The notes under the pieces were generated by a model. That model had not been told where the DNA came from. It saw only the letters and a list, made by a program, of their open reading frames with translations, and did not search any database. A program made the translations under genes and the position numbers. This document shows, piece after piece, positions 11,541-64,000 of a DNA stretch of 64,000 nt; the first letter of the stretch is position 1, and each line of letters starts with the position of its first letter. The DNA comes from Candidatus Stahliibacteriota bacterium (lineage in GTDB: Bacteria > Hydrothermota > Tepidihabitantia > SM23-42), in the NCBI GenBank assembly GCA_030602565.1, contig JAUVZL010000001.1:47233-111232 (forward strand). The letters run 5' to 3'.

Positions 11541-11572
11541 ATGACCTCCTTTCATATATTTAAGTCTCTGAT

Positions 11573-11600
11573 ATTATACTGAATATTATTCTTGTGTCAA
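11573..11600 (-). promoter_or_regulatory. perfect consensus sigma70 promoter (TTGACA-16-TATAAT) for the S8 protease
   Basis: On the minus strand, TTGACA (rc of 11595-11600) is followed by a 16-nt spacer and TATAAT (rc of 11573-11578). A UTR with GGAGG and the ATG follow. Confidence 0.55.
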
Positions 11601-11744
11601 TGGCTTGCAATACCTAATATGTTGACTGGTCACATCAGGTGTGTATACTTTGAAAAGCCGTTTAAAACGGCAAAGTTATTGAGTTACTAAAAAACGTTTT
11701 GACCGTTGATTGAGTCACAAGTGATTAGAAGTGAGTTTACAGCT

Positions 11745-11782
11745 ACGCGGTTACGCTGATATTCAAAAAAAGGGGGAGAGGT
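11745..11782. repeat. left copy of a 39-bp inverted repeat pair (partner at 13118-13156)
   Basis: acgcggttacgctgatattcaaaaaaagggggagaggt matches the rc of 13118-13156 at about 36 of 39 positions. Its GGGGGAGAGG doubles as the SD for the 11783 gene. Confidence 0.6.
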
Positions 11783-12082
11783 ATGTTACGAATAAACGAG
11801 AACAATGAGGGACAAAATGAACATGCTCCCGAACTCGTCGTTGTACTCAGCACATTTAGTCTTGGTGACGTTGCAATCGTAAAATCAATACTTGATGCAG
11901 CTGATATCCAATACTTTTTCAAAGGTGAACGTTTTCTTGGTTTGGTCAAGCCATGGGCTGATCCAGCCAAGCTAATCGTCAAGAAAGCACAGGCTAAAAA
12001 GGTCAAAAGATTACTTAAAGACCTGAAACTACAGGACTGTAGTTTTTTCGCACCGTCTGGGAATAAAGGTGATACTACTTAG
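11783..12082 (+). CDS. DUF2007-like small protein (putative signal-transducing protein family)
   Basis: The pattern LVVVLSTFSLGDVAIVKSILDAADIQYFFKGE...LIVKKAQAKKVKRLL fits DUF2007. A strong SD is present. Length is 99 aa. Confidence 0.5.
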   Translation: MLRINENNEGQNEHAPELVVVLSTFSLGDVAIVKSILDAADIQYFFKGERFLGLVKPWADPAKLIVKKAQAKKVKRLLKDLKLQDCSFFAPSGNKGDTT

Positions 12083-12186
12083 TTATCTCCCTATTTTACA
12101 AGACTTTTTATCGATAGATTAAACAAAATTATAAGTATATCGAGGCAAAAAATTGGTTTTAATGCATTTCTATACAATCTCCACCC

Positions 12187-12293
12187 TTGATTTTCTTGGC
12201 AGGTTGAGTATAATTTATATAGAAGAGGCATTATTGCTTTTGCTTCTTTCTTGAACCGCAAACCTGTCCAGTATTGGATGGGTTTGCGTTTTT
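12187..12293 (+). ncRNA. candidate small RNA (~70 nt) with promoter (TTGATT-16-TATAAT) and Rho-independent terminator
   Basis: The -35 TTGATT lies at 12187-12192 and a perfect -10 TATAAT at 12209-12214. The predicted TSS is near 12221. A terminator stem CGCAAACC/GGTTTGCG (12257-12288) is followed by TTTTT (12289-12293). There is no ORF between. Confidence 0.4.
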
Positions 12294-12318
12294 AGTACAA
12301 TAAACAAGTAAGTCATTT

Positions 12319-12378
12319 GAATCCCAAGGGATTGGAAGAGATCACTACGTGTTGGAATCCCAAGGGGATTGGAAGAGA
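12319..12378. repeat. tandem pair of 23/24-bp repeats, each containing the palindrome AATCCCAAGGGATT
   Basis: GAATCCCAAGGGATTGGAAGAGA (12319-12341) and GAATCCCAAGGGGATTGGAAGAGA (12355-12378) are separated by a 13-bp spacer. Confidence 0.6.
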
Positions 12379-12386
12379 GAATGTAT

Positions 12387-12423
12387 CAAATACCTAAACA
12401 CCTAAATTCCTAAATACCTAAAG
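12387..12423. repeat. CCTAAATACCTAAA-family repeat module
   Basis: The sequence reads caaatacctaaacacctaaattcctaaatacctaaag. Confidence 0.6.
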
Positions 12424-12635
12424 ACAAATTCCAAGAAACAAAAAGAAATGGCACTGCCTCTCGAAAAACTCGAGACCTTCGGCTGGAACAGTTTTAATTC
12501 CCTTCATTTTAAATCATTCCATTCGAAGAATCCATTCCAGTGTGAAACACTCATTTCCATACGAAGTATCTCTTCTATGCTTAGCATCATTTCTCTTTGC
12601 CCTTTGTGCTGGAAGGGAGCTGCGCTGGAAATATA

Positions 12636-12756
12636 GAAACGGAGAATTGGAGAAACGGTGAAACGGAGTATAGTGAGTATCAGAGAATATCGTATTCGTA
12701 AATCGTGCATCGTACTCGTAAAAAAACGATAATAACGGAACTAACGGACGAAACGT
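12636..12756. repeat. CGTATTCGTAAATCG-family dispersed repeat (copy 1), with GAAACGG heptamer repeats
   Basis: gaaacggagaattggagaaacggtgaaacggag...gagtatcagagaatatcgtattcgtaaatcgtgcatcgtactcgtaaaaaaacgataataacggaactaacgg is homologous to the copies at 36860, 61190 (rc) and 62262. Confidence 0.65.
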
Positions 12757-13117
12757 CTTTTAATAACTAAATTACTTAGTTACCTAATAACTGTTTTGTT
12801 CAGTTACTCAATAAATCGGATGACTACATCTATAGTGTAATGAATACAGAAATACTGGAGGTCAATGATCACCATAAGGAATAACCAACGCAGACGATTG
12901 AATGCCGGCTTTCCGAGCTGCTTTTTCCTTATTTTGCAATGCTTTCAAGCGTATTCGCCTTCGATTTCTTGGGTCTGATAATGGTTATTATGCAAACTTG
13001 ATAATTTTCGAGTTCTGATGACCAGCAAAAGGCTATTGTCAAAGAAACAAAATATCGCCAAATATCCACATTAAAACCGTAAAACAAACTTCCTGTTATT
13101 TTTGAAATCTTGGATCA

Positions 13118-13156
13118 ACCTCTCCCCCTTTTTTTGAGTATCAGAGTAACCGCGTA
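13118..13156. repeat. right copy (inverted) of the 39-bp inverted repeat pair
   Basis: The rc reads acgcggttactctgatactcaaaaaaaagggggagaggt. It shares gagtatcagag with the 12668 repeat copy. Confidence 0.6.
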
Positions 13157-13253
13157 TTAGAGTAATGGCATAACACAAGCACAGAGAATTAGAGAGCAGG
13201 AGATTACCACGGTCATCTCTGATGACCTCGCAATGACATTTTGTCCTGATATC

Positions 13254-13439
13254 CTATATTTTTCCTGTATAATAGAATATCTTTTTACAGTCTTCGCATT
13301 TAAAAAGGTTTTCTGGTCTCTGCTTTTTCTTGATCGGTTTCGGATTGACTCTTGTGTTTTGCACAGGATACAGGTAGTTCACATTATTGCTGTTGCAATA
13401 CGGGCACTTCATTTTATCAGTGTGTTTCTTCTCAGACAT
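13254..13439 (-). CDS. small basic zinc-ribbon protein (61 aa, CPYC...CEDC)
   Basis: An AAGGA SD lies 7 nt before the ATG. Two CxxC pairs are present. It is driven by the perfect consensus promoter at 13467-13495. Confidence 0.5.
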   Translation of the reverse strand: MSEKKHTDKMKCPYCNSNNVNYLYPVQNTRVNPKPIKKKQRPENLFKCEDCKKIFYYTGKI

Positions 13440-13466
13440 AGTGATATCCTTATACCCTGCTATTGC

Positions 13467-13495
13467 ATTATACTTTCTCTTCTGATCAATGTCAA
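13467..13495 (-). promoter_or_regulatory. perfect consensus sigma70 promoter (TTGACA-17-TATAAT) for the zinc-ribbon gene
   Basis: On the minus strand, TTGACA (rc of 13490-13495) is followed by a 17-nt spacer and TATAAT (rc of 13467-13472). Confidence 0.55.
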
Positions 13496-13503
13496 GGTAT
13501 AAT

Positions 13504-13781
13504 CAGAAACTTGGACACATTGTTTAATAGACATTTTAGGAAACCCTCACCCTTACCCTCTCCCTTTCTAAGGGAGAGGGTGTCATTCTTTTTAGCTATC
13601 CTCTCCTCTCTGAGGAGAGGATAAAAGCCTGCCTTGAACCCTGAAAGTGTCATTCTGAACCATGCCCTGAACTTGTTTCATGGGTTGGTTCAGAATCTCT
13701 TCAGGGCAGGCTCTTTCCAGGGGTGAGGAGTTCATTTAATAAATTCCAAAATCAAGGGAGGAAGATATGTCTAAGTTTCTG
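13504..13781. mobile_element. MITE copy 1 (278 bp): 16-bp TIRs CAGAAACTTGGACACA / rc TATGTCTAAGTTTCTG, with 7-bp TSD GTATAAT/GTATAGT
   Basis: The left TIR is at 13504-13519 and the right TIR at 13766-13781. Flanking 7-mers at 13497-13503 and 13782-13788 match 6 of 7. The interior is packed with GA-rich palindromes (CCCTCTCCCTT..AAGGGAGAGGG, ATCCTCTCCTC..GAGGAGAGGAT) and a long imperfect hairpin, all enclosed by ccctcaccc/ggggtgagg. Confidence 0.65.
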
Positions 13782-13833
13782 GTATAGTACCAGTTCGATA
13801 GTTGTACAATTATGCAACTGTACAATTGTAATA

Positions 13834-28607: not shown

Positions 28608-28657
28608 CCTAAAATATAAATGCCTAAAAATCCAAAATACCTAAATACCTAAACCTA
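28608..28657. repeat. CCTAAATACCTAAA-family repeat module
   Basis: The sequence reads cctaaaatataaatgcctaaaaatccaaaatacctaaatacctaaacc. Confidence 0.55.
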
Positions 28658-35945: not shown

Positions 35946-36770
35946 ATGCCTGAACTCCCTGAAGTCGAGACTATCAAAAGAGAGTTGAAGCCCAATATCA
36001 TTAATAAAAAAATCCTGGCATGTATCCCTTTGCGTAGTGATGTAATTGCTTACCCAAAACCAAAGACATTTTGTAGAGCAATCATTGACGAAAGAGTGAC
36101 TAATGTAACGCGCAAAGCCAAATACCTATTTCTTGAGCTCACCAATGAAAAGAAAATTGTCTTCCATTTCAGGTTGTCTGGTACTATCTCATTGAGAAAA
36201 CTACACGTTAAACCTGAACGTTTTACTAGGGTAATAATAAAGATCAACGGCTACCAGCTTTTCTTCAATGAACCAAGGGTCTTGGGTAGAATCTACCTCT
36301 TGAAAGGCAAAAAGAGATTGCCGTTTTTAAAAGGACTGTACAACCTCGGACTTGAACCGATTGCTGATGCATTCGATTTACCCTATTTCCGCAACAAAAT
36401 AAAAGGAAGAAAGGCGAAAATAAAAGCCTTGCTTCTTGACCAGAGTATCTGTGCCGGAGTCGGTAATATATATTCTGATGAAGCACTTTTCCATGCCGGA
36501 ATAAGACCCTTGCGCCGTGCTAAGCGTATAACGATCAGAGAAACCGCAAAACTTGTGAGAACTCTGAAACACGTAATACAAAAAGGGATAGATAATTACG
36601 GAACATCGGTTTCTGATTATCACCGAACCGATGGCAAAGATGGGAATTTTCAAAAATTTCTGTATGTCTACGGCAAAGAGGATGAACCTTGTAAAGTCTG
36701 CGGGACAAAAATTGTCTTGACGAAACTCGGCAACCGGTCCACCAGATACTGTCCTAAATGCCAGAAATAA
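35946..36770 (+). CDS. mutM: formamidopyrimidine-DNA glycosylase
   Basis: MPELPEVETIKRELKP N-terminal catalytic Pro. A C-terminal zinc finger CKVCG...CPKCQK is present. Length is 274 aa. Confidence 0.9.
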   Translation: MPELPEVETIKRELKPNIINKKILACIPLRSDVIAYPKPKTFCRAIIDERVTNVTRKAKYLFLELTNEKKIVFHFRLSGTISLRKLHVKPERFTRVIIKINGYQLFFNEPRVLGRIYLLKGKKRLPFLKGLYNLGLEPIADAFDLPYFRNKIKGRKAKIKALLLDQSICAGVGNIYSDEALFHAGIRPLRRAKRITIRETAKLVRTLKHVIQKGIDNYGTSVSDYHRTDGKDGNFQKFLYVYGKEDEPCKVCGTKIVLTKLGNRSTRYCPKCQK

Positions 36771-37050
36771 ATACAAATTCCTAAATACCTAAACCCAGCT
36801 CGTTCATAACGGGCTTGGGTAAAAATCCAAAATACCTAAATACCTAAATGAACCAGATCAACGAAGAAACGGAGAATATCGTATTCGTAAATCGTACTCG
36901 TAAAAAACACGATAATAATTTATCCCGTGGAATGCGACCCGCCCTGCCTGTCCCGTAGCGTCAGCGTACGGGGTGGAGTGTGCACACTATTCCATGGGGA
37001 GCATATTCCATTGGGACGGACTAAACGATACTAACGTATCAAACGGTATT
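36771..37050. repeat. composite intergenic repeat element: CCTAAATACCTAAA modules + CGTATTCGTAAATCG-family unit (copy 2) with ~55-bp internal insertion
   Basis: cctaaatacctaaa occurs twice, then ...gaaacggagaatatcgtattcgtaaatcgtactcgtaaaaaacacgataataatttatcccgtggaatgcga...ccattgggacggactaaacg. It is colinear with 12636-12756 and with the rc of 61190-61375. Confidence 0.65.
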
Positions 37051-42936: not shown

Positions 42937-42964
42937 TTGACATTTACGCAGTTTTGTATAGAAT
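42937..42964 (+). promoter_or_regulatory. promoter TTGACA-16-TAGAAT positioned for leaderless nadB
   Basis: TTGACA at 42937-42942 and TAGAAT at 42959-42964. ATG 42970 lies 5 nt downstream with no SD. The listed ORF start at 42937 is the TTG of the -35 box. Confidence 0.4.
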
Positions 42965-42969
42965 TTAAT

Positions 42970-44499
42970 ATGCTGAAAAAGGTGGATTTCCTTATTGTAG
43001 GATCAGGGATAGCCGGCTTGACGTTTGCCATCAACTCTGCACAATATGGTCAAATACTCATTCTGACTAAAAAGAACAGAGCTGATTCGAATACCAACTA
43101 TGCACAAGGGGGTATCGCATCAGTTTTTAGCGATGCGGATTCATTTGATTGCCATATCAATGATACAATCAAAGCTGGTGAAGGGTTGAGCCACCAAAAT
43201 GCTGTGAAAATAATGGTCGAGAATGGTCCAAAGCTAGTAAGTAAACTGTATGATAAGGGTTGTCGTTTTACCCTCGATGACCAAGGCAATTTCGCCCTCG
43301 GCAAAGAAGGTGGTCATTCCCAACGCCGTATTGTACATGCCAAGGACTATACTGGTTATGAGATCGAACATGTCCTCTTGGAGGAAGTCAAGAGAAAAAA
43401 CGTTATAATAAGTGAAAATGAAATTGCTCTTGATTTAATAATAATCGACGGCGAATGTTTGGGACTCTACTTTTTTGACGCTAACAAACAAAAGATTGAC
43501 TACATCTTAGCCAATGCTACAGTACTCGCGACCGGCGGCACAGGACAAATATATCTTCACACCACAAATCCACCAATTGCCACAGGCGATGGTATTGCCA
43601 TGGCTTTTCGTGCCGGTGCGAGAGTGGCAAATATGGAGTTTGTACAATTCCACCCTACATCAGTCTACAACATACAAACCGATGGTCGGGCTTTTCTGAT
43701 ATCAGAGGCGTTACGCGGTGAAGGCGGCATATTGAAAACAAAGAATGGTAAACCATTCATGGATAAGTACGACCCGGCTGGAAACCTCGCTCCCCGGGAT
43801 ATCGTAGCACGAGCTTGTGTTTCTGAAATGTATGCAACGAAGTCAAAATATGTACTGCTTGATATTTCGCATGTTAATGCTGGCTATCTGAAGAATAGAT
43901 TTCCGACGATCTATGAAACATGCATGAAGTGGGGTATTGATATGACTCGCGAACCAATACCAGTAGTACCAGCTGCCCATTATACATGTGGCGGGATCTT
44001 GGTTAACACCTGGGCTGAATCGTCCATCAACCGGTTATTCGCCCTGGGCGAATGCAGTTGTACTGGGGTACACGGCGCAAATAGGCTCGCGTCCAATTCC
44101 TTGCTTGAAGCCCTGGTTTTTTCAACTAGAGCATCGGAAAGAGCGAAAAAGATAAAATCTATTAGAACAAAAACAAGGATACCCGTGAAACAAACCGCGC
44201 AGTCCGGACCAGATTATAGATTACAGATTAAAGAAATCATGGATCAATACCTTGGCGTCATACGAACTGTAAAGGGATTGGAAATAGCACACGAATCCAT
44301 TAGTGACTTCTGCAGCAAGTATGATGATGGCATATACCTAAAAAACGCGGAAGCTCGAAATGTCGCCGACATTGCAATGCTCATAGTTAAATCCGCCATT
44401 ATGCGTACCGAATCCCGTGGTCTCCACTATATCAGGGAATACCCTAAGAAGAAAAGGGAGTTTTCAAAAGATACGGTAATCAGCAGGAAAGAAAGTTGA
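42970..44499 (+). CDS. nadB: L-aspartate oxidase
   Basis: FAD-binding VDFLIVGSGIAGL. It belongs to the fumarate reductase/succinate DH flavoprotein family. A ~510-aa single-subunit size fits NadB. Confidence 0.8.
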   Translation: MLKKVDFLIVGSGIAGLTFAINSAQYGQILILTKKNRADSNTNYAQGGIASVFSDADSFDCHINDTIKAGEGLSHQNAVKIMVENGPKLVSKLYDKGCRFTLDDQGNFALGKEGGHSQRRIVHAKDYTGYEIEHVLLEEVKRKNVIISENEIALDLIIIDGECLGLYFFDANKQKIDYILANATVLATGGTGQIYLHTTNPPIATGDGIAMAFRAGARVANMEFVQFHPTSVYNIQTDGRAFLISEALRGEGGILKTKNGKPFMDKYDPAGNLAPRDIVARACVSEMYATKSKYVLLDISHVNAGYLKNRFPTIYETCMKWGIDMTREPIPVVPAAHYTCGGILVNTWAESSINRLFALGECSCTGVHGANRLASNSLLEALVFSTRASERAKKIKSIRTKTRIPVKQTAQSGPDYRLQIKEIMDQYLGVIRTVKGLEIAHESISDFCSKYDDGIYLKNAEARNVADIAMLIVKSAIMRTESRGLHYIREYPKKKREFSKDTVISRKES

Positions 44500-58645: not shown

Positions 58646-59328
58646 AGCTTCTCGATCTTTTCGAGGTCTTCGTTTTTACCGAGCATGATCAATACGTCAC
58701 CTGATATTACCTCGTCATTACCACCCGGACCAACAACAATCTCCTCTTTGAAATCTGTTGAGCCATCGGGTAGGGTAATCGGCAACTTTCGCTTAATAGC
58801 AATCACACTTACCTTGAATTTCTCACGCATTTTCAATTCACTAAGGGTTCTATTAACAAGTTTCTTAGGGATAACCATTTCGATTATGCCATAGGTTTTT
58901 GAGAGCTCGATAAAATCAAAGATCTTTGGACTGGCAATACTCTCAGCGAGTCTTTCAGCCATTTCTCTTTCCGGGAAGATGATTCGATCAGCCCCAACTT
59001 TCCTTAAGATTTTAGAGTGCAGCTCACTTTTTGCCTTTACGATCACTTTCCTCAAACCCATTTCTTTCAATGACAAGGTGATCATAATACTATCTTCAAT
59101 AGTCTCACCCATACTCACTATTGCCGTGTCAAAATCAGTAATACCGAGTTCTTTCAAACCTTTTTCATCGGTTGCGTCCATGACCACAGCTTGGGAAACA
59201 ATGCCTTCCATTTCTTTAATGCGTTCTTCATCTTCGTCGATAGCCAGGACATCAAAACCTTTTTCGCTTAGTGCCTGGGCAATGCTTGACCCAAAACGGC
59301 CTAATCCTATAACGACAAATTGCTTCAT
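58642..59328 (-). CDS. trkA: Trk/Ktr potassium uptake system NAD-binding subunit (TrkA-N + TrkA-C)
   Basis: VVIGLGRFGSSIAQAL Rossmann motif. Length is 228 aa. Confidence 0.85.
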   Translation of the reverse strand: MKQFVVIGLGRFGSSIAQALSEKGFDVLAIDEDEERIKEMEGIVSQAVVMDATDEKGLKELGITDFDTAIVSMGETIEDSIMITLSLKEMGLRKVIVKAKSELHSKILRKVGADRIIFPEREMAERLAESIASPKIFDFIELSKTYGIIEMVIPKKLVNRTLSELKMREKFKVSVIAIKRKLPITLPDGSTDFKEEIVVGPGGNDEVISGDVLIMLGKNEDLEKIEKL

Positions 59329-59337
59329 TAATTCCTC

Positions 59338-59844
59338 CTAATTACTTGAGATACCGAGTTTTTTCTTCAAATATGGTATCAAACCATTGTTCGTAACTAT
59401 CTCCAAAATAAAATCCGGTAGTTTCTTTGCTTCAATGATTTCATTAGTGCGCATATTTTTAATTATACCGGTTAGTAGGTCAATTTCGATATCATCCTTG
59501 TGCTCAACCTGTTGCGTAATCCCCGGCGCGATAATCACTGGCAGACCCAAATTGATTGCATTCCTGTAGAAAATCCGGGCAAAGGTCTCCGCAACAACAG
59601 CTCTGATACCAAAGTACTTAAGGCAAGTTGCCGCCTGCTCACGGGATGAACCGCAGCCGAAGTTCTTACCGCCGACTATGATATCACCGGGTTTTGCATT
59701 TTTCAGGAATTCAGGATGGACCGCTTCAAAACAATGCTTTGCCATTTCCTCGCGATCTGCGGTAATAGATAGATACTTACCCGGATAGATCACGTCAGTA
59801 TTTATATTATCGCCGAATTTATATACATGTCCCTTAATCAACAT
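59338..59844 (-). CDS. aconitase-family dehydratase small subunit (LeuD-like, short type)
   Basis: MLIKGHVYKFGDNINTDVIYPGKYL. Length is 168 aa. It overlaps the large-subunit gene. Confidence 0.8.
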   Translation of the reverse strand: MLIKGHVYKFGDNINTDVIYPGKYLSITADREEMAKHCFEAVHPEFLKNAKPGDIIVGGKNFGCGSSREQAATCLKYFGIRAVVAETFARIFYRNAINLGLPVIIAPGITQQVEHKDDIEIDLLTGIIKNMRTNEIIEAKKLPDFILEIVTNNGLIPYLKKKLGISSN

Positions 59845-61085
59845 GGTTCAGTTATCTCCCCTTTCAGCGCTGAAGCCGCTACAGTCGCAGGTGATGCCAG
59901 ATAAATAAAAGCTTCAGGACTGCCCATCCGTCCCTTAAAATTGCGATTTGTCGTTGCCAGACAAACCTCTTCAGGAGCAAGTAAACCCTGATGTGCACCG
60001 AGGCAAGGTCCGCAACCTGGATTCAATAGAAGTCCACCGGCTCGGACAAAAATCTCAATGTAGCCTTCATGTAGAGCCTCAAGATAGACTCTGCGTGAAG
60101 CCGGGATCACTAATAACCGTGTGTCTGGATGTACTGTTTTACCCTCTAAAATCTCGGCTGCGGCAGCCAGATCTTCTAACCTCCCATTAGTACACGACCC
60201 GATTAATGCCTGATCAATCTTTAGGCCGGTTACTTCACTAACCGGTTTGACATTGTCAACTGAATGTGGACAGGCAACTTGACTCGTTAAGCTACTAACA
60301 TCGACATTCAATTCACCACTATATTCAACATCTTGATCAGGTAAGATAACCTGGAAATGCTTGTCGGTCCTCTGCTTTAGATAAGCTATGGTTTGTTCAT
60401 CCGGGGGCACAAACGCGACTTTTGCCCCCATCTCCATAGACAGGTTGGAAAGAACCAAGCGTGACGCGATAGTCATATGAGATATTATTTCACCATGGAA
60501 TTCTACTGCCTGGTAATTGGCTCCATCCGCACCCAATATCCCGATAATATGCAAGATAAGATCCTTTGCCGTTACACAAGGTTTGAATTTACCACTTACA
60601 TTAATCTTTATTGATTCTGGTACGCGCAACCATAGTTCTCCGGTTGCCCAAACGCCCGCCATTTCCGTAGCACCAATCCCGGTCGCAAAAGTGCCAAAAG
60701 CACCATGTGTTGTTGTATGAGAATCAGTGCCTACTAAGACCTCGCCAGGTAAATCATGCCCAAATTCCACTAAAACCTGGTGACAAATCCCTTCTTTCAA
60801 ATCATAGAAGTGTTTGATCTGCTGTTCTTTTACAAATGCCCGTAAACGACGATGAGTAGCTGCGGTCCTTTCACTATCTGCAGGTATACGGTGATCAAAG
60901 AGTATGACAATTCTCTCCTTATCCCAAACTTTTTTAACACCGATTTCATTAAACGACCTTAATACAACATCGGCATTTTCATGGGACATAGCCACATCAA
61001 CTCTTGCCATGACGATTTCGTTAGGAGATACTACTTTTTTACCTGACGCCTTAGCTAATATCTTCTCAGCGATAGTTTTATTCAT
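59838..61085 (-). CDS. aconitase-family dehydratase large subunit (LeuC-like, ~415 aa archaeal-type)
   Basis: N-terminus MNKTIAEKILAKASGKK. Cys ligand motifs are present (GSCTNGR, CGPCLG). Confidence 0.85.
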   Translation of the reverse strand: MNKTIAEKILAKASGKKVVSPNEIVMARVDVAMSHENADVVLRSFNEIGVKKVWDKERIVILFDHRIPADSERTAATHRRLRAFVKEQQIKHFYDLKEGICHQVLVEFGHDLPGEVLVGTDSHTTTHGAFGTFATGIGATEMAGVWATGELWLRVPESIKINVSGKFKPCVTAKDLILHIIGILGADGANYQAVEFHGEIISHMTIASRLVLSNLSMEMGAKVAFVPPDEQTIAYLKQRTDKHFQVILPDQDVEYSGELNVDVSSLTSQVACPHSVDNVKPVSEVTGLKIDQALIGSCTNGRLEDLAAAAEILEGKTVHPDTRLLVIPASRRVYLEALHEGYIEIFVRAGGLLLNPGCGPCLGAHQGLLAPEEVCLATTNRNFKGRMGSPEAFIYLASPATVAASALKGEITEPC

Positions 61086-61189
61086 CAGAAATCATTGTAG
61101 TCGCTCAATTCATTGAGCAGCCTGATAAACCTGTCCTGAACGCAGTTGAAGGATCAGGCAACTACATTTTTGAAAATCAGATTCATCAA

Positions 61190-61375
61190 AAGCGTTTAAT
61201 CCGTTAGTTCCGTCCCAATTGAATATGCTTCGCATTCCACGGGATAAATTATTATCGTTATTTTTTACGAGTACGATGTATCCCGATTTTTCATATTGAT
61301 ACATATAATGATCGGTAATCGAGGATCCCGCTTTGCGGGACGATTCACGAATACGATATTCTCCGTTTCGATCGT
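61190..61375. repeat. CGTATTCGTAAATCG-family dispersed repeat (copy 3, reverse orientation) with internal ~65-bp insertion containing hairpin TCCCGCAAAGCGGGA
   Basis: The rc reads cgatcgaaacggagaatatcgtattcgtgaatcg...tcgtactcgtaaaaaataacgataataatttatcccgtggaatgcgaagcatattcaattgggacggaactaacgg. Confidence 0.65.
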
Positions 61376-61480
61376 TTATCTGGGTTGTCTTCAGCCAAAG
61401 GCGTGCCTGCAGTCCGCCATATTGTGTGGCGGACGTGTCTTCAATCCGCCGTTGGTGGATGTGTCTCCAGCGCAGCGTGT

Positions 61481-62245
61481 TCATTCCGTTAAATCTCTTT
61501 CCCATGGTCCGTCGTAGGTAACTTCTTGTTCACACATACGGCGCATAGGTTTCTGCGTCGTCATTTCCTCGTACACATGTGCGATAAGACCAGCACATCG
61601 ACCAATTAAAAAGAAAGCTTTACCAAGTTTCCAATCAAACCCCATATCTGATATGATCGCGGCGATTGCGCCGTCGACATTTATGGGTAGTGCTTTTCCC
61701 TTAGCGAATTCTTCTTTCAGCGCAAGGCTCAGCTTCATGTGTTCTTTACTGATTTTTAAATCATCAGCCATTTCATAGAGCCGTTTGGTTCGCGGGTCGT
61801 TTTTATGGAGGCGATGACCAAATCCGGGCATGCGTCTACGTTGTTCTTTTAAGTCTGCCAATAATTTCTGTGCTGTTTGTTCAAAACTCCACTCATTTTT
61901 ATTCATCAATTTTACCCACTCCTGAAGGATTCTTGCACCATCTTCAATTGCTCCACCGTGGACATCACCAACTGCCAAAATTCCAGCAGCTACTGCACTA
62001 GGCAAAGGTACACCAGCTGAGGCAACGATGCGCGCGGCATGTGTTGAAGGTGGAGTAACACTGTGGTCAATTGAGGAAGTAATGATTGCATCGATCATTT
62101 TTGCTTCTTTTTCATCGGGCATTTCCCCCTTAATAAGTAAGAAAAAAACCGATGCAAAAGGAACAGTACCGATCAGATTCTCTTGTCGATACCCTCTCGT
62201 CACAATATGATCTGGTTCAACTTTTGAAATCTTTGTTTGCCACAC
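61481..62245 (-). CDS. citryl-CoA lyase / ATP-citrate lyase C-terminal (citrate synthase-like) domain protein
   Basis: WQTKISKVEPDHIVTRGY...LLIKGEMP...GFGHRLHKNDPR matches the CCL/ACL C-terminal domain. The start is GTG 62245 (MWQTKIS), with AAGGAGG 5 nt upstream. The listed TTG 62296 start would run through the repeat element. Confidence 0.7.
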   Translation of the reverse strand: MWQTKISKVEPDHIVTRGYRQENLIGTVPFASVFFLLIKGEMPDEKEAKMIDAIITSSIDHSVTPPSTHAARIVASAGVPLPSAVAAGILAVGDVHGGAIEDGARILQEWVKLMNKNEWSFEQTAQKLLADLKEQRRRMPGFGHRLHKNDPRTKRLYEMADDLKISKEHMKLSLALKEEFAKGKALPINVDGAIAAIISDMGFDWKLGKAFFLIGRCAGLIAHVYEEMTTQKPMRRMCEQEVTYDGPWERDLTE

Positions 62246-62261
62246 TTCTACCTCCTTAAAA

Positions 62262-62325
62262 ACGTACTCGTAAATCGTGCACCGTATTCGTAACAAATAC
62301 GATCTACGACATATGAATACGAATT
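62262..62325. repeat. CGTATTCGTAAATCG-family dispersed repeat (copy 4)
   Basis: The sequence reads cgtactcgtaaatcgtgcaccgtattcgtaacaaatacgatctacgacatatgaatacgaatt. Confidence 0.6.
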
Positions 62326-62449
62326 ATCCTCACATTTATTGCCTTCTTTTGTATTCTTCATTCTTCTCAAGCCATCCCCACATATTTCCCATCGCTCTTT
62401 GTCATTAATCGCCTTCTTAAGCCTTTTTCTGTACGTTCTCTGCGCCATC

Positions 62450-63343
62450 TTATGCCTTCTCATGCTTTGTTCTGCCTTCTAAAGCCCTCTTAATAAGTAC
62501 CGGTATCTCGCTCAGTGTTTCCGCAAGTATTGCGCCGTGCTTTTGTAAAGCCTCAATCTTGCTTTTCGCAGTACCCATATTACCCTCAATGATCGCACCA
62601 GCATGACCGAGCCGCTTACCTTGAGGTGCTGCCTTCCCTGTTATATAGGCAATAACTGGCTTTGACATATGTTCAATAAAAGGAGCTGCTAATTCTTCAT
62701 AAACCCCACCGATTTCACCGGCCATCACAACCGCATCGGTCCCAGGGTCATTTTCAAACAATCGCAATATATCCTCGTAGTTTGCTCCCAGGATTGGGTC
62801 GCCACCCAGACCGACTGAAGTCGATTCACCAAAGCCAGCAAGGTTTAGAGAATTTGCCAAATAATATGTCACTGCGCCGCTCCGTGCAACCGTACCTATG
62901 CGTCCAGGTTTGAAGGTGATTCTCGGCAGCATGCCAACGAGTGCTTTACCTGGTGAAATCACGCCCGGCGTATTGCCTCCTATAACAACGACGCCCTTTT
63001 CTTTAGCTTTTTGGCGTGCGTATAGCATATCGTGAATTGGGATGCATTCAGTTATCACAATAACCGTTTTAATACCGGCATCAACTGCCTCGAGTATTGC
63101 ATCCTTAGCAAAACGTGGCGGTACCCAAATGCTTGATACAGCAGCATCTGGATGTTCTTCCATGCACTGGTGTATAGTATCATACACTCTTACACCTTCA
63201 ACTTCCTGACCACCTTTGCCCGGCGTTACCCCACCAGCAATCTTTGTCCCGTATTCGAGCATGAACTTTGTGTGGAGCGATGCATTTCTTCCAGTAATCC
63301 CCTGGACTATCGTTTTCGTTTCATTATCAATAATAATACTCAT
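62450..63343 (-). CDS. succinyl-CoA synthetase alpha-subunit-like (CoA-binding + CoA-ligase; ACL alpha-like) protein
   Basis: IVQGITGRNASLHTKFMLEYGTKIAGGVTPGKGG matches SucD. The phospho-His loop GHAGAI is present. No beta-subunit gene is adjacent. Confidence 0.85.
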   Translation of the reverse strand: MSIIIDNETKTIVQGITGRNASLHTKFMLEYGTKIAGGVTPGKGGQEVEGVRVYDTIHQCMEEHPDAAVSSIWVPPRFAKDAILEAVDAGIKTVIVITECIPIHDMLYARQKAKEKGVVVIGGNTPGVISPGKALVGMLPRITFKPGRIGTVARSGAVTYYLANSLNLAGFGESTSVGLGGDPILGANYEDILRLFENDPGTDAVVMAGEIGGVYEELAAPFIEHMSKPVIAYITGKAAPQGKRLGHAGAIIEGNMGTAKSKIEALQKHGAILAETLSEIPVLIKRALEGRTKHEKA

Positions 63344-63430
63344 AATTGCTTAGTTAAATAATTCAATCATATTTCCACCTTTTATTTCATGCGTTTTAGA
63401 TACTTAATATAGCCATTTATACCTTTGAGC

Positions 63431-63470
63431 AATTTAACCTTTTAACCATATAACCATTCAACCATTATAG
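63431..63470. promoter_or_regulatory. tandem AACCATT repeats upstream of the sucD-like operon (same motif family as 25916-25960)
   Basis: The sequence reads aatttaaccttttaaccatataaccattcaaccattatag. Confidence 0.3.
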
Positions 63471-63537
63471 TCTTTTTCCCCTGTTCCTTCTATTATGACC
63501 AACGCGTTGCATTTTATCATCGAATTCGTGTTACAGA

Positions 63538-64000
63538 TTATTTGATTATTACGATTTTTTCAACCACACGTAGGTCATTATCGTTTTGGATATCAACAAA
63601 GTATACGCCACTGGGTAGATTCTTCCCTCTTCTATTGCAGATGTTTACACTACCAGAGAAGCCTTTTTCAAATGTCAGTTCTTGCCTATCAATAACTCGC
63701 CCCGTGCAATCATATATCTTCACAATAAGGACATGACTGCCTTCGGGAACCACAAGCACTAGCTGTCGAATATCTTTTATGACTGAGTTTCTTACAAATG
63801 GTGGTGAGTTTTTGTCTTGATCTTTTTGAATTACGTCTATACGTACACTGTCGGAAAATTCCGATTCGTTGCCTAAAGAATCATAAGCGGTAAGCTTATA
63901 TTCATATCTATACATACGCTGGACAGTTGTGTCAAGATGAGTGGTATCTGTTGGGCTGCTATTTTCGGCTATTATCCCCCAGCTACTCCATTGGGGTGGA
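63538..64000 (-). CDS. secreted protein with C-terminal T9SS-type sorting domain, partial (5' end beyond window)
   Basis: The reading frame is open from the window edge (…PPQWSSWGIIAENSSPTDTTHLDTTVQR MYRYEYK…). The C-terminus LVVPEGSHVLIVKIYDCTGRVIDRQ...GVYFVDI...IVIIK is CTD-like. The track's Met at 63915 is internal. Confidence 0.7.
   Translation of the reverse strand, partial: PPQWSSWGIIAENSSPTDTTHLDTTVQRMYRYEYKLTAYDSLGNESEFSDSVRIDVIQKDQDKNSPPFVRNSVIKDIRQLVLVVPEGSHVLIVKIYDCTGRVIDRQELTFEKGFSGSVNICNRRGKNLPSGVYFVDIQNDNDLRVVEKIVIIK

Follow-up and report, generated by a model that had tools for sequence, protein, structure and literature searches.

Can one subunit of an acyl-CoA ligase and a citryl-CoA lyase (CCL), encoded by neighboring but separate genes and with no gene for the second ligase subunit in sight, make up a system for cleaving or making citrate? 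The question is raised by positions 59338-63343 of a 64,000-nucleotide stretch of Candidatus Stahliibacteriota contig JAUVZL010000001.1 (hereafter the window), where four genes lie on the minus strand, all co-directional. They encode the alpha subunit of an ADP-forming ligase of the succinyl-CoA synthetase (SCS) family, a CCL homologue, and the large and small subunits of a LeuCD-type, aconitase-family dehydratase. We found that the second ligase subunit is encoded in the same genome, separated from the first by an inserted gene, and that the four genes are part of an operon conserved in the uncultured candidate phylum WOR-3. That this operon combines an SCS-type ligase with CCL in a two-step reaction, linked to ATP, between citrate on one side and acetyl-CoA plus oxaloacetate on the other is a proposal to which we give about an even chance. 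The features at the locus are:

62450-63343, minus strand: sucD', 297 amino acids, alpha subunit of an ADP-forming CoA ligase of the SCS family (Pfam CoA_binding and Ligase_CoA)

61481-62245, minus strand: ccl, 254 amino acids, citryl-CoA lyase homologue with the citrate-synthase C-terminal fold

59838-61085, minus strand: leuC-type gene, 415 amino acids, large subunit of an aconitase-family [4Fe-4S] dehydratase

59338-59844, minus strand: leuD-type gene, 168 amino acids, small subunit, specificity loop YLSI

62246-62449: sucD'-ccl spacer, 204 bp, with one dispersed-repeat copy at 62258-62297 that includes a CGTAYTCGTRA pair

61086-61480: ccl-leuC spacer, 395 bp, holding a repeat element of about 156 bp at 61206-61361

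63344-63537: insertion junction, 194 bp, between sucD' and the inserted gene

63538-64000, minus strand: 3' end of the inserted gene, which encodes a secreted protein of about 915 amino acids with a type IX secretion system (T9SS) C-terminal sorting domain (Por_Secre_tail matches) and runs past the window end

An earlier note on this DNA had recognized a SucD-like gene with a phosphohistidine loop and a CCL-like gene with a citrate-synthase-type motif, and both descriptions hold: RLGHAGAII is seen in the open reading frame (ORF) at 62450-63343 and GFGHRLHKNDPR is present in that at 61481-62245. The spacers have the lengths it reported (204 bp and 395 bp) and contain repeats as described, and the LeuC- and LeuD-like genes that it placed directly downstream are confirmed by ORFs and profiles. 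The note also described the pair as lacking a beta, or ATP-grasp, partner. This is accurate for the window: a tblastn search found no SucC-like sequence in its 64 kb, and the gene directly upstream of sucD' encodes the protein with the T9SS sorting tail. It is not accurate for the genome, in which a beta subunit gene, here called sucC', lies just past the window end.

The evidence for sucC' comes from several contigs. Two of them, from the same species (L049 and L052), show the order leuC2-leuD2-HD-sucC'-sucD'-ccl-leuC-leuD, with only 16 bp between sucC' (395 amino acids) and sucD'. They match the window at 97-98% nucleotide identity through trkA, DUF366, a radical-SAM gene, an M50 peptidase gene, dxr and ispD, and their homology breaks off exactly at the sucD' ATG, 63343. 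The genome search for an ATP-grasp beta subunit that the earlier note had called for does find one: a SucC' variant of 394 amino acids (P0248) was placed by exact-sequence look-up on an NCBI contig of 147,975 bp, which is also the length of the contig with the window's SucD', CCL and LeuC proteins. P0248 is also encoded on Logan contig L054 of run SRR14872667, the run that yields L001, which corresponds to the window at 100% identity. L054 has the order leuC2-leuD2-HD-sucC' and, 153 bp further on, the end of a secreted-protein gene that encodes the signal peptide. Lastly, a Joint Genome Institute (JGI) contig from another sample (L055; 96.7% identity to window 62444-64000) holds sucC', a spacer, the T9SS-tail gene and sucD'-ccl-leuC-leuD-trkA on a single contig. 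The inserted gene is extended to 637 amino acids by L001 and is complete in L055 at 915; the N-terminal 170 amino acids from L054 match residues 1-163 of the L055 protein, and L001 matches residues 280-915.

In the lineage of the window, a single gene of about 2.75 kb is inserted precisely between sucC' and sucD', replacing their 16-bp junction. The layout past position 64000 is assembled from L001, L054 and L055, and extrapolation puts sucC' some 3.1 kb upstream of sucD' and about 2.4 kb past the window end, at about 66.4-67.6 kb in window coordinates. It was out of view in the window because this insertion of about 3.1 kb displaced it from sucD'. Mis-assembly at the sucD' junction was considered and ruled out: three independent assemblies share the junction, including L001 (100%) and L055 (96.7%).

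Both ligase subunit genes remain intact despite the split. The ratio of non-synonymous to synonymous substitution rates (dN/dS) is about 0.31 for sucD', measured against strains with and without the insertion, and about 0.08-0.11 for sucC'. This bears on the description in the earlier note, which implied that sucD' encodes an orphan alpha subunit, either a decaying remnant or a protein that functions without a beta subunit. The absence of sucC from the window would agree with such an orphan, as would the loss of the native ribosome-binding site to the insertion, but the idea is refuted in practice by the same genome's sucC', intact and some 3.1 kb upstream. Moreover, sucD' is full length and, in a pair of diverged strains each with the insertion, shows a dN/dS near 0.3; the low ratio of sucC' itself speaks the same way. 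We therefore leave an orphan alpha subunit next to no chance. The junction contains AGGTGGA (63374-63380) and then a six-codon mini-ORF, MIELFN (63350-63370, minus strand), which stops 6 nucleotides ahead of the sucD' ATG; the junction, mini-ORF included, is kept in L055. The mini-ORF might have restored translational coupling after loss of the native ribosome-binding site, or might be there by chance.

The inserted gene also corresponds to L001:1-1914 and L055:11756-14503. Its product of about 915 amino acids combines a signal peptide and the T9SS C-terminal sorting domain with an HEFGH motif of the HExxH zinc-protease-like kind. Between strains its N-terminal 280 or so amino acids are highly divergent (34% identity) and the remainder is 87% identical. 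Across WOR-3, some genomes have 3-16 bp between sucC' and sucD' where others have 95-270 bp, and three genomes (loci L005, L008 and L009) have an extra ORF of 101-143 amino acids (cluster c36) at this place. Loci with a variable junction include these three as well as L006 and L047, and insertions seem to recur at the sucC'-sucD' junction. Nucleotide identity to L049/L052 is 93-94% in ccl, 97.6-97.9% in sucD' and 97-99% in the downstream genes; such unevenness is suggestive of recombination or relaxed constraint at ccl and in the spacer that flanks it.

Is the association of the ligase with ccl a general one? Of the 15 WOR-3 loci that could be assessed, 13 have ccl directly preceded by a sucD' orthologue, and 12 have sucC' ahead of that. 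A sucC-like gene stands ahead of sucD' in every close relative with enough upstream sequence. In the compact form of the operon the successive gaps are 46 bp (HD to sucC'), 3 bp (sucC' to sucD'), 27 bp (sucD' to ccl), 21 bp (ccl to leuC) and 8 bp (leuC to leuD), distances that would fit co-transcription of the HD gene, both ligase subunit genes, ccl and leuCD. The window locus makes up the downstream two-thirds of this conserved WOR-3 (Stahlbacteria-type) operon, leuC2-leuD2-HD-sucC'-sucD'-ccl-leuC-leuD. As judged from gene order, which is conserved and tightly spaced, a functional link between the SucD-like and CCL-like proteins is supported.

The identity of CCL is clear. The gene starts with GTG after AAGGAGG, and its product scores 310 bits against the NF004866 citryl-CoA lyase model (cut-off 245) and 149.6 bits against PF00285, in which it matches profile positions 162-355 only, that is, the C-terminal half. 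Against the PDB, it scores 229.9 bits to Hydrogenobacter thermophilus CCL (6hxp), at most 73.6 bits to citrate synthases and about 62 bits to CCL modules from ATP-citrate lyases (ACL; 60 bits to 6hxj_B). Equivalents of pig citrate synthase H238, H274, H320, R329, D375, R401 and R421 are all kept in CCL and across its family; the matching list of E. coli citrate synthase residues is given in PMC13147460. With the citrate-synthase C-terminal fold, a length of about 260 amino acids and the catalytic His/His/Asp, the protein belongs with the stand-alone citryl-CoA lyases. It falls outside the citrate synthases, being 254 amino acids long against about 370-430 and reaching 104.9 bits with the best citrate synthase model (cut-off 421). 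Its relatives place the window in candidate phylum WOR-3, or Stahlbacteria.

The affiliation of the ligase is less simple. SucD' has the GHAGA phosphohistidine loop and passes the curated SucD thresholds, with 370.6 bits for TIGR01019 (cut-off 353.2) and 362.2 bits for NF004230 (cut-off 336). Against the PDB it scores 283-329 bits to bona fide SCS-alpha chains, the best being Methanocaldococcus jannaschii 2yv1 at 329, compared with 174 bits to CcsB (6hxq_A) of the H. thermophilus citryl-CoA synthetase (CCS) and 108 bits to Chlorobium AclA (6hxj_B). Orthology to CcsB thus fails for the small subunit, given these scores and the SucD equivalog model that it passes. For SucC', scores taken on the conspecific beta subunit (the L049 protein for the NCBIfam cut-offs) are 226 bits to Thermus SCS-beta, 112 to CcsA and 79 to AclB, and it remains under both curated SucC cut-offs (TIGR01016, 346.8 against 375.55; NF001913, 329.1 against 370). 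Because it scores below these thresholds, public annotations of its orthologues vary: PGAP names them succinate--CoA ligase beta, ATP-grasp protein or acetate--CoA ligase family.

Among 1.84 billion representative proteins the WOR-3 beta subunit is isolated: two clusters at 506 and 359 bits carry its signature, and the next matches, at 266 bits or less, are canonical SCS betas. The invariant signature is PGGAG[FY]GI / NFMDSGG[AG]P / GARFGGISRCDD. Its nearest non-WOR-3 relatives are P0292, in an unrelated cluster without ccl, and P0285, on a 2.4-kb contig. Three loops of the C-terminal domain, whose positions we take from SCS and human ACL (ACLY) structures to bear on substrate, compare as follows:

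Loop 1: NGAGLAM in E. coli SCS, PGGAGFGI in WOR-3 SucC', FGGGGSTV in H. thermophilus CcsA

Loop 2: GGGAT in E. coli SCS, GGAPT in WOR-3 SucC', GGNPPA in H. thermophilus CcsA

Loop 3: NIFGGIVRCD in E. coli SCS, ARFGGISRCD in WOR-3 SucC', CGGTANNT in H. thermophilus CcsA

In the first loop, Gly replaces the Asn of the SCS motif NGAGLAM, as in CcsA-type betas. Elsewhere, the L054 beta and all its WOR-3 orthologues have RFGGISRCD and GGAPT, and neither the CCS/ACL-type loop GG[TSV]AN[NF]T nor the GNPP motif is found in the WOR-3 beta, so that CcsA orthology fails for the large subunit too. In two genomes of the candidate phyla radiation (CPR), by comparison, the betas adjoining ccl have SGGGAS, SGNPP and GGVANFT and are of the CcsA/ACL type. 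In a rough neighbor-joining tree, which carries no support values, the CPR betas and a Desulfovirgula beta fall with CcsA. By sequence affiliation the ligase is neither CcsAB-type nor ACL-type in descent, and its beta subunit is best described as an isolated, deep-branching SCS-like subfamily.

The earlier note had seen in the SucD-like and CCL-like proteins the two halves of ACL. What survives of this is the functional link, in view of the conserved and tight gene order; by descent, the ligase is not the AclA or CcsB half. The note further reasoned that the functions would be unrelated if SucD grouped with bona fide SCS, a sucC were found elsewhere and CCL grouped with citrate synthases. SucD' does group with bona fide SCS (329 bits to SCS-alpha) and sucC' does exist outside the window, past its end, but CCL does not group with the citrate synthases (230 bits to H. 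thermophilus CCL against at most 74). Because CCL sides with the H. thermophilus enzyme, unrelated functions do not follow.

The LeuCD-type subunits can be placed by subfamily. The LeuC-type protein scores 338 bits for PF00330, 593.5 for NF001614 (cut-off 385) and 582 for TIGR01343 hacA_fam, which it passes, and stays under the equivalog cut-offs of LEU2 (498 against 611) and HacA_Meth (529.5 against 550). The LeuD-type protein passes TIGR02087 (206.6 bits, cut-off 109) and stays under those of leud (195.6 against 246) and HacB (178-189 against 230). Both subunits thus pass archaeal-type subfamily models and reach no equivalog threshold that would fix the substrate. The nearest solved protein to the LeuD-type subunit is the small subunit of M. 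jannaschii isopropylmalate/citramalate isomerase (3vba, 193.6 bits), with homoaconitase 2pkp at 150 bits, and its loop YLSI is neither YLRT, the Arg-containing loop of homoaconitase, nor YLVY. Comparison of the LeuD specificity loops did not separate the two LeuCD pairs of the operon (leuCD and leuC2D2), both of which resemble isopropylmalate/citramalate isomerase.

What occupies the place upstream of ccl in other lineages? In CPR loci L044 and L046, a CcsA-type beta and an alpha precede ccl, and in Desulfovirgula (L033) a CcsA-like beta and an alpha do so. In a Thermoplasmatales locus (L016) and a Methanobacteriota locus (L019), the genes adjoining ccl encode an HD protein and CitF (443 bits), and in L016 a fused LeuCD-type gene comes after ccl; the HD protein is common to the WOR-3 and archaeal versions. 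The CcsA-type ligases and CitF in this slot support a partner that makes or uses citryl-CoA, since both kinds of enzyme are able to produce an acyl-CoA from citrate or from a compound much like it. Other contexts also occur: ccl follows a 2-oxoacid:ferredoxin oxidoreductase / NuoF-like cluster in Zixibacteria and Ignavibacteria, and fumarase in Methanobacterium (L036). Hidden ligase subunits flanking ccl in Zixibacteria and Ignavibacteria were ruled out, the flanking genes being lipoprotein-like.

The archaeal HD-CitF-ccl arrangement, in metagenome-assembled genomes, spans L016:7976-12544 and L019:9980-12861. Its gene content suggests an ATP-independent citrate lyase in which a CitF-type CoA transferase and a citrate-synthase-fold lyase would stand in for CitDEF. 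The Desulfovirgula cluster (L033:3836-15275) comprises a PrpR-like sigma-54 activator, a two-subunit class I fumarase/mesaconase-like enzyme, the CcsA-like beta, the alpha and ccl, and further an amidohydrolase-like protein, methylaspartate ammonia-lyase and an Oxidored_FMN/FlpD protein. The cluster could be a variant of the methylaspartate pathway in which the ligase and lyase pair serves C5/C6 hydroxy-acid cleavage.

On these observations we propose a mechanism, in which we infer the ligase substrate, the direction of the reaction and the role of the LeuCD-type enzymes. SucC' (ATP-grasp beta) and SucD' (CoA-binding, phosphohistidine alpha) make up an ADP-forming acyl-CoA ligase of the SCS superfamily, which would convert citrate, ATP and CoA reversibly to citryl-CoA, ADP and inorganic phosphate. 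CCL would then split citryl-CoA, again reversibly, to acetyl-CoA and oxaloacetate. The pair would act like Hydrogenobacter CCS/CCL, with a ligase from an isolated SCS-like lineage and not from CcsAB or ACL. We assume that ligase and lyase work together because CCL needs an enzyme to make or consume citryl-CoA and because the slot beside ccl holds a CcsA-type ligase or CitF elsewhere. As to direction, the CCS/CCL reaction steps are near equilibrium (values in PMC13147460), so that either direction is possible, and ATP-dependent citrate cleavage is equally allowed by thermodynamics. We lean toward ATP-conserving citrate synthesis, which would feed 2-oxoglutarate and glutamate, because an aconitase-family enzyme directly follows ccl and because nothing indicates autotrophy. 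We may go further and hypothesize that SucC'D' is a citryl-CoA synthetase of separate origin from CcsAB and ACL, or preserves an ancestral SCS-like state. With CCL, and with LeuCD as aconitase, it would run ATP-citrate lyase in reverse and save thioester energy as ATP in energy-limited anaerobes. This extension is tentative, and we rate it clearly below an even chance.

Several observations weigh against the proposal. SucD' is not distinguishable by score from housekeeping SucD. SucC' retains the SCS-type FGGI.RCD loop and not the G-[ST/V]-A-N-[NF]-T loop of the CcsA and CPR betas, which, as a matter of loop sequence, argues for a dicarboxylate (succinate, malate or citramalate) over citrate, and the same rough tree sets the WOR-3 betas on the SCS side, on a long branch of their own. 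Two WOR-3 loci (L011 and L012) read dapA-dapB-ccl-leuCD, with no ligase, and many lineages (Methanobacterium, Zixibacteria, Ignavibacteria) have ccl without an adjacent ligase. Both LeuD-type subunits of the operon are nearest to isopropylmalate/citramalate isomerase (193.6 and about 174 bits) and lack the loop Arg that homoaconitase uses for the third carboxylate. With the insertion in place, no obvious Shine-Dalgarno sequence stands ahead of sucD' at the normal distance. Finally, tricarboxylic acid (TCA) cycle genes are often clustered without acting on one another's products. The locus may accordingly be read as an ordinary TCA-type cluster in which SucC'D' is a divergent SCS and CCL is independent of it, either as a minimal citrate synthase (condensation plus thioester hydrolysis) or with a partner encoded elsewhere, and in which the neighbors share a branch of central metabolism with no hand-over of citryl-CoA. 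An alpha subunit that passes curated SucD models and scores 329 bits to a solved SCS-alpha, and a beta with the SCS-type FGGISRCD loop on the SCS side of the tree, are what such a cluster would contain. The ligase-free ccl genes of Methanobacterium, Zixibacteria, Ignavibacteria and the two WOR-3 loci agree with it, as do the fumarase or 2-oxoacid:ferredoxin oxidoreductase genes beside which ligase-free ccl sits and the report in a preprint of Methanobacteria as 'CCL only' (10.1101/2022.10.25.513756). But the beta reaches neither NCBIfam SucC cut-off and stands in a clade apart, marked by an invariant substrate-loop signature of its own; other phyla fill the slot upstream of ccl with CcsA-type ligases or CitF, enzymes that produce tricarboxylic acyl-CoA or acyl-ACP thioesters; the HD gene accompanies the module in both WOR-3 and archaea; and CCL lacks the N-terminal part of citrate synthase and scores far under every citrate synthase cut-off. 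We consider an ordinary cluster rather unlikely, if well worth keeping in mind.

The same loop and LeuD observations would also suit a route through citramalate or another 2-hydroxy-dicarboxylate. Here the ligase would act on citramalate or malate, the CCL-like enzyme would make or cleave citramalyl-CoA (acetyl-CoA plus pyruvate) and both LeuCD-type isomerases would take citramalate to 2-oxobutyrate and isoleucine, making the whole operon one pathway. The two LeuD-type subunits, with M. jannaschii isopropylmalate/citramalate isomerase as nearest relative (193.6 and about 174 bits) and with hydrophobic or small loops (YLSI and YLP[IL]), fit it, as does the dicarboxylate-type SCS loop of the beta. 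So does the ligase-ccl trio of Desulfovirgula L033, found beside a fumarase/mesaconase-like pair and methylaspartate ammonia-lyase (the methylaspartate route runs via citramalate), and CitF-type transferases are also found in citramalate lyase. Against this, the residues that bind both carboxylates of oxaloacetate (H238, R329, R401 and R421 in pig) are kept in CCL and its family, L033 included; to our knowledge, all characterized enzymes of the citrate-synthase fold use oxaloacetate; and the nearest characterized relative (230 bits) is a proven citryl-CoA lyase. A citramalate route, which the earlier note had offered as an alternative, is in our view improbable, though a serious competitor. 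Still less probable is a module for citrate cleavage in the reductive TCA cycle, serving autotrophic CO2 fixation as in Aquificaceae, which was among the functions suggested in the earlier note. The two-step enzyme logic is the same, CCL is homologous to the Hydrogenobacter enzyme and the CCS/CCL reactions are near equilibrium (PMC13147460). Yet nothing in the window speaks for an autotrophic cycle: Pfam annotation of its remaining genes, which are housekeeping, reveals no 2-oxoglutarate:ferredoxin oxidoreductase, pyruvate:ferredoxin oxidoreductase, isocitrate dehydrogenase or fumarate reductase operon, nor an aconitase or citrate synthase. The WOR-3 literature consulted describes mostly heterotrophic or fermentative organisms and does not mention CCS/CCL (PMC12542636, PMC12285271), and the ligase is not of the CcsAB type.

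Compared with known systems, the SCS-type ligase and CCL that we favor as a joint citrate enzyme share with H. thermophilus CcsA/CcsB and Ccl (6hxq, 6hxp) an ATP-grasp beta, a phosphohistidine alpha and a separate citrate-synthase-fold lyase of about 255 amino acids; CCL is clearly homologous (229.9 bits), with all catalytic residues kept. The WOR-3 ligase differs in being nearer to SCS (alpha, 329 against 174 bits; beta, 226 against 112) and in its beta, which has FGGISRCD where CcsA has GGTANNT and branches outside the CcsA/CPR clade. The WOR-3 genes further share their operon with genes for LeuCD-type dehydratases and for an HD protein, and the host lineage is of a non-thermophile type, with no sign of autotrophy in the window. 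Because orthology to both CcsA and CcsB fails, we do not file the system in the CCS/CCL family; it may work like CCS/CCL all the same. With SucCD (E. coli 1scu, Thermus 3ufx, M. jannaschii 2yv1) it has in common the domain architecture, the SucD models passed and the FGGI.RCD loop, and relatives of the window have sucC and sucD adjacent, 3-16 bp apart. Unlike SucC, the WOR-3 beta is under both SucC cut-offs, in an isolated clade, with a different C-terminal tail and with PGGAG[FY]GI for NGAGLAM and GG[AG]P for GGGA; in addition, the pair is fixed beside a citryl-CoA lyase gene, and its subunit genes are here some 3.1 kb apart through the insertion. ACL (AclA/AclB of Chlorobium, 6hxj; human ACLY) presents the same sum of parts, beta plus alpha plus CCL module, which is the resemblance first noticed at this locus. 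In WOR-3, by contrast, alpha and CCL are unfused, being two ORFs parted by a stop codon and 204 bp of spacer, scores to ACL are low (alpha 108, CCL module 62 and beta 79 bits) and the ACL-type citrate loop is absent from the beta. The archaeal CitF-ccl loci repeat the slot order, HD, acyl-CoA-forming enzyme and ccl, with a LeuCD-type gene next in L016. This suggests the same task performed by a CoA transferase in place of a ligase; CitF belongs to a protein family unrelated to the WOR-3 ligase and does not use ATP.

CCS/CCL homologues outside Aquificae have been noted in genome surveys, in CPR, DPANN and Deltaproteobacteria, with Methanobacteria as 'CCL-only' (bioRxiv 10.1101/2022.10.25.513756), and for this reason a CCL in a candidate phylum is not new by itself. 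In literature searches we found no description of the WOR-3 operon, of CCL paired with an SCS-type instead of a CcsAB-type ligase, of the archaeal CitF-ccl arrangement or of a strain-specific split of a ligase by a secreted-protein gene; nor did they return any experimental characterization of the CitF-ccl arrangement.

The spacers of the locus carry repeats that recur elsewhere in the window. The sequence CGTAYTCGTRA occurs eight times, against 0.06 expected, always paired and always intergenic, both spacers included. Dispersed-repeat copies with variable internal inserts lie at 12683-12760, 36853-37020, 61188-61369 and 62258-62297. The block of about 156 bp at 61206-61361 is a small dispersed insertion in the ccl-leuC spacer, since L008, L002 and L003 lack it in the same spacer and keep the flanking parts. 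The sucD'-ccl spacer is kept in L004 (88%) and in L049 (inside a continuous 93% alignment). An Rfam E-value search of 59000-64000 gave one chance snoRNA match only, with no riboswitch or known RNA in the spacers; the 156-bp repeat folds no better than shuffles (z = -0.52) and matches no Rfam family, and promoter-like or terminator-like sites are not commoner than in shuffles. Away from the locus, a gene-poor stretch of 2.3 kb (11556-13833) is delimited by a 39-nucleotide inverted repeat (11744-11782 / 13118-13156, 95% complementary) and holds one dispersed-repeat copy, a duplicated GAATCCCAAGGGGATTGGAAGAGA motif (about 12318-12378) and tandem 8-nucleotide CCTAAA-type repeats (12378-12422); similar CCTAAA arrays are present at 28617-28653 and 36765-36848. 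A stand-alone flavoprotein of 520 amino acids (42937-44499, plus strand; FAD_binding_2 and Succ_DH_flav_C; NadB/Frd-like) would be an L-aspartate oxidase or a fumarate reductase flavoprotein, and is the window's only other possible link to the TCA cycle.

What does the locus mean for WOR-3 and for the enzymes of citrate? If the ligase is only an SCS, the locus comes down to a central-metabolism cluster of the ordinary kind, interrupted by a strain-specific insertion. If it handles citryl-CoA, two-step citrate cleavage or synthesis would have come together on more than one occasion, with ligases of different lineages and, in archaea, with a CitF transferase, and the partner slot beside ccl would be a useful genomic marker. 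The pipeline labels 'succinyl-CoA synthetase' and 'citrate synthase' would then misstate the TCA completeness of WOR-3, a matter described as controversial (PMC12542636). The system would also provide a testable intermediate for the proposed path from SCS plus CCL through CCS/CCL to ACL or citrate synthase. Should SucC'D' be a citryl-CoA synthetase of separate origin or in an ancestral state, WOR-3 would offer a living example of the SCS plus CCL stage proposed in the evolution of ACL and citrate synthase.

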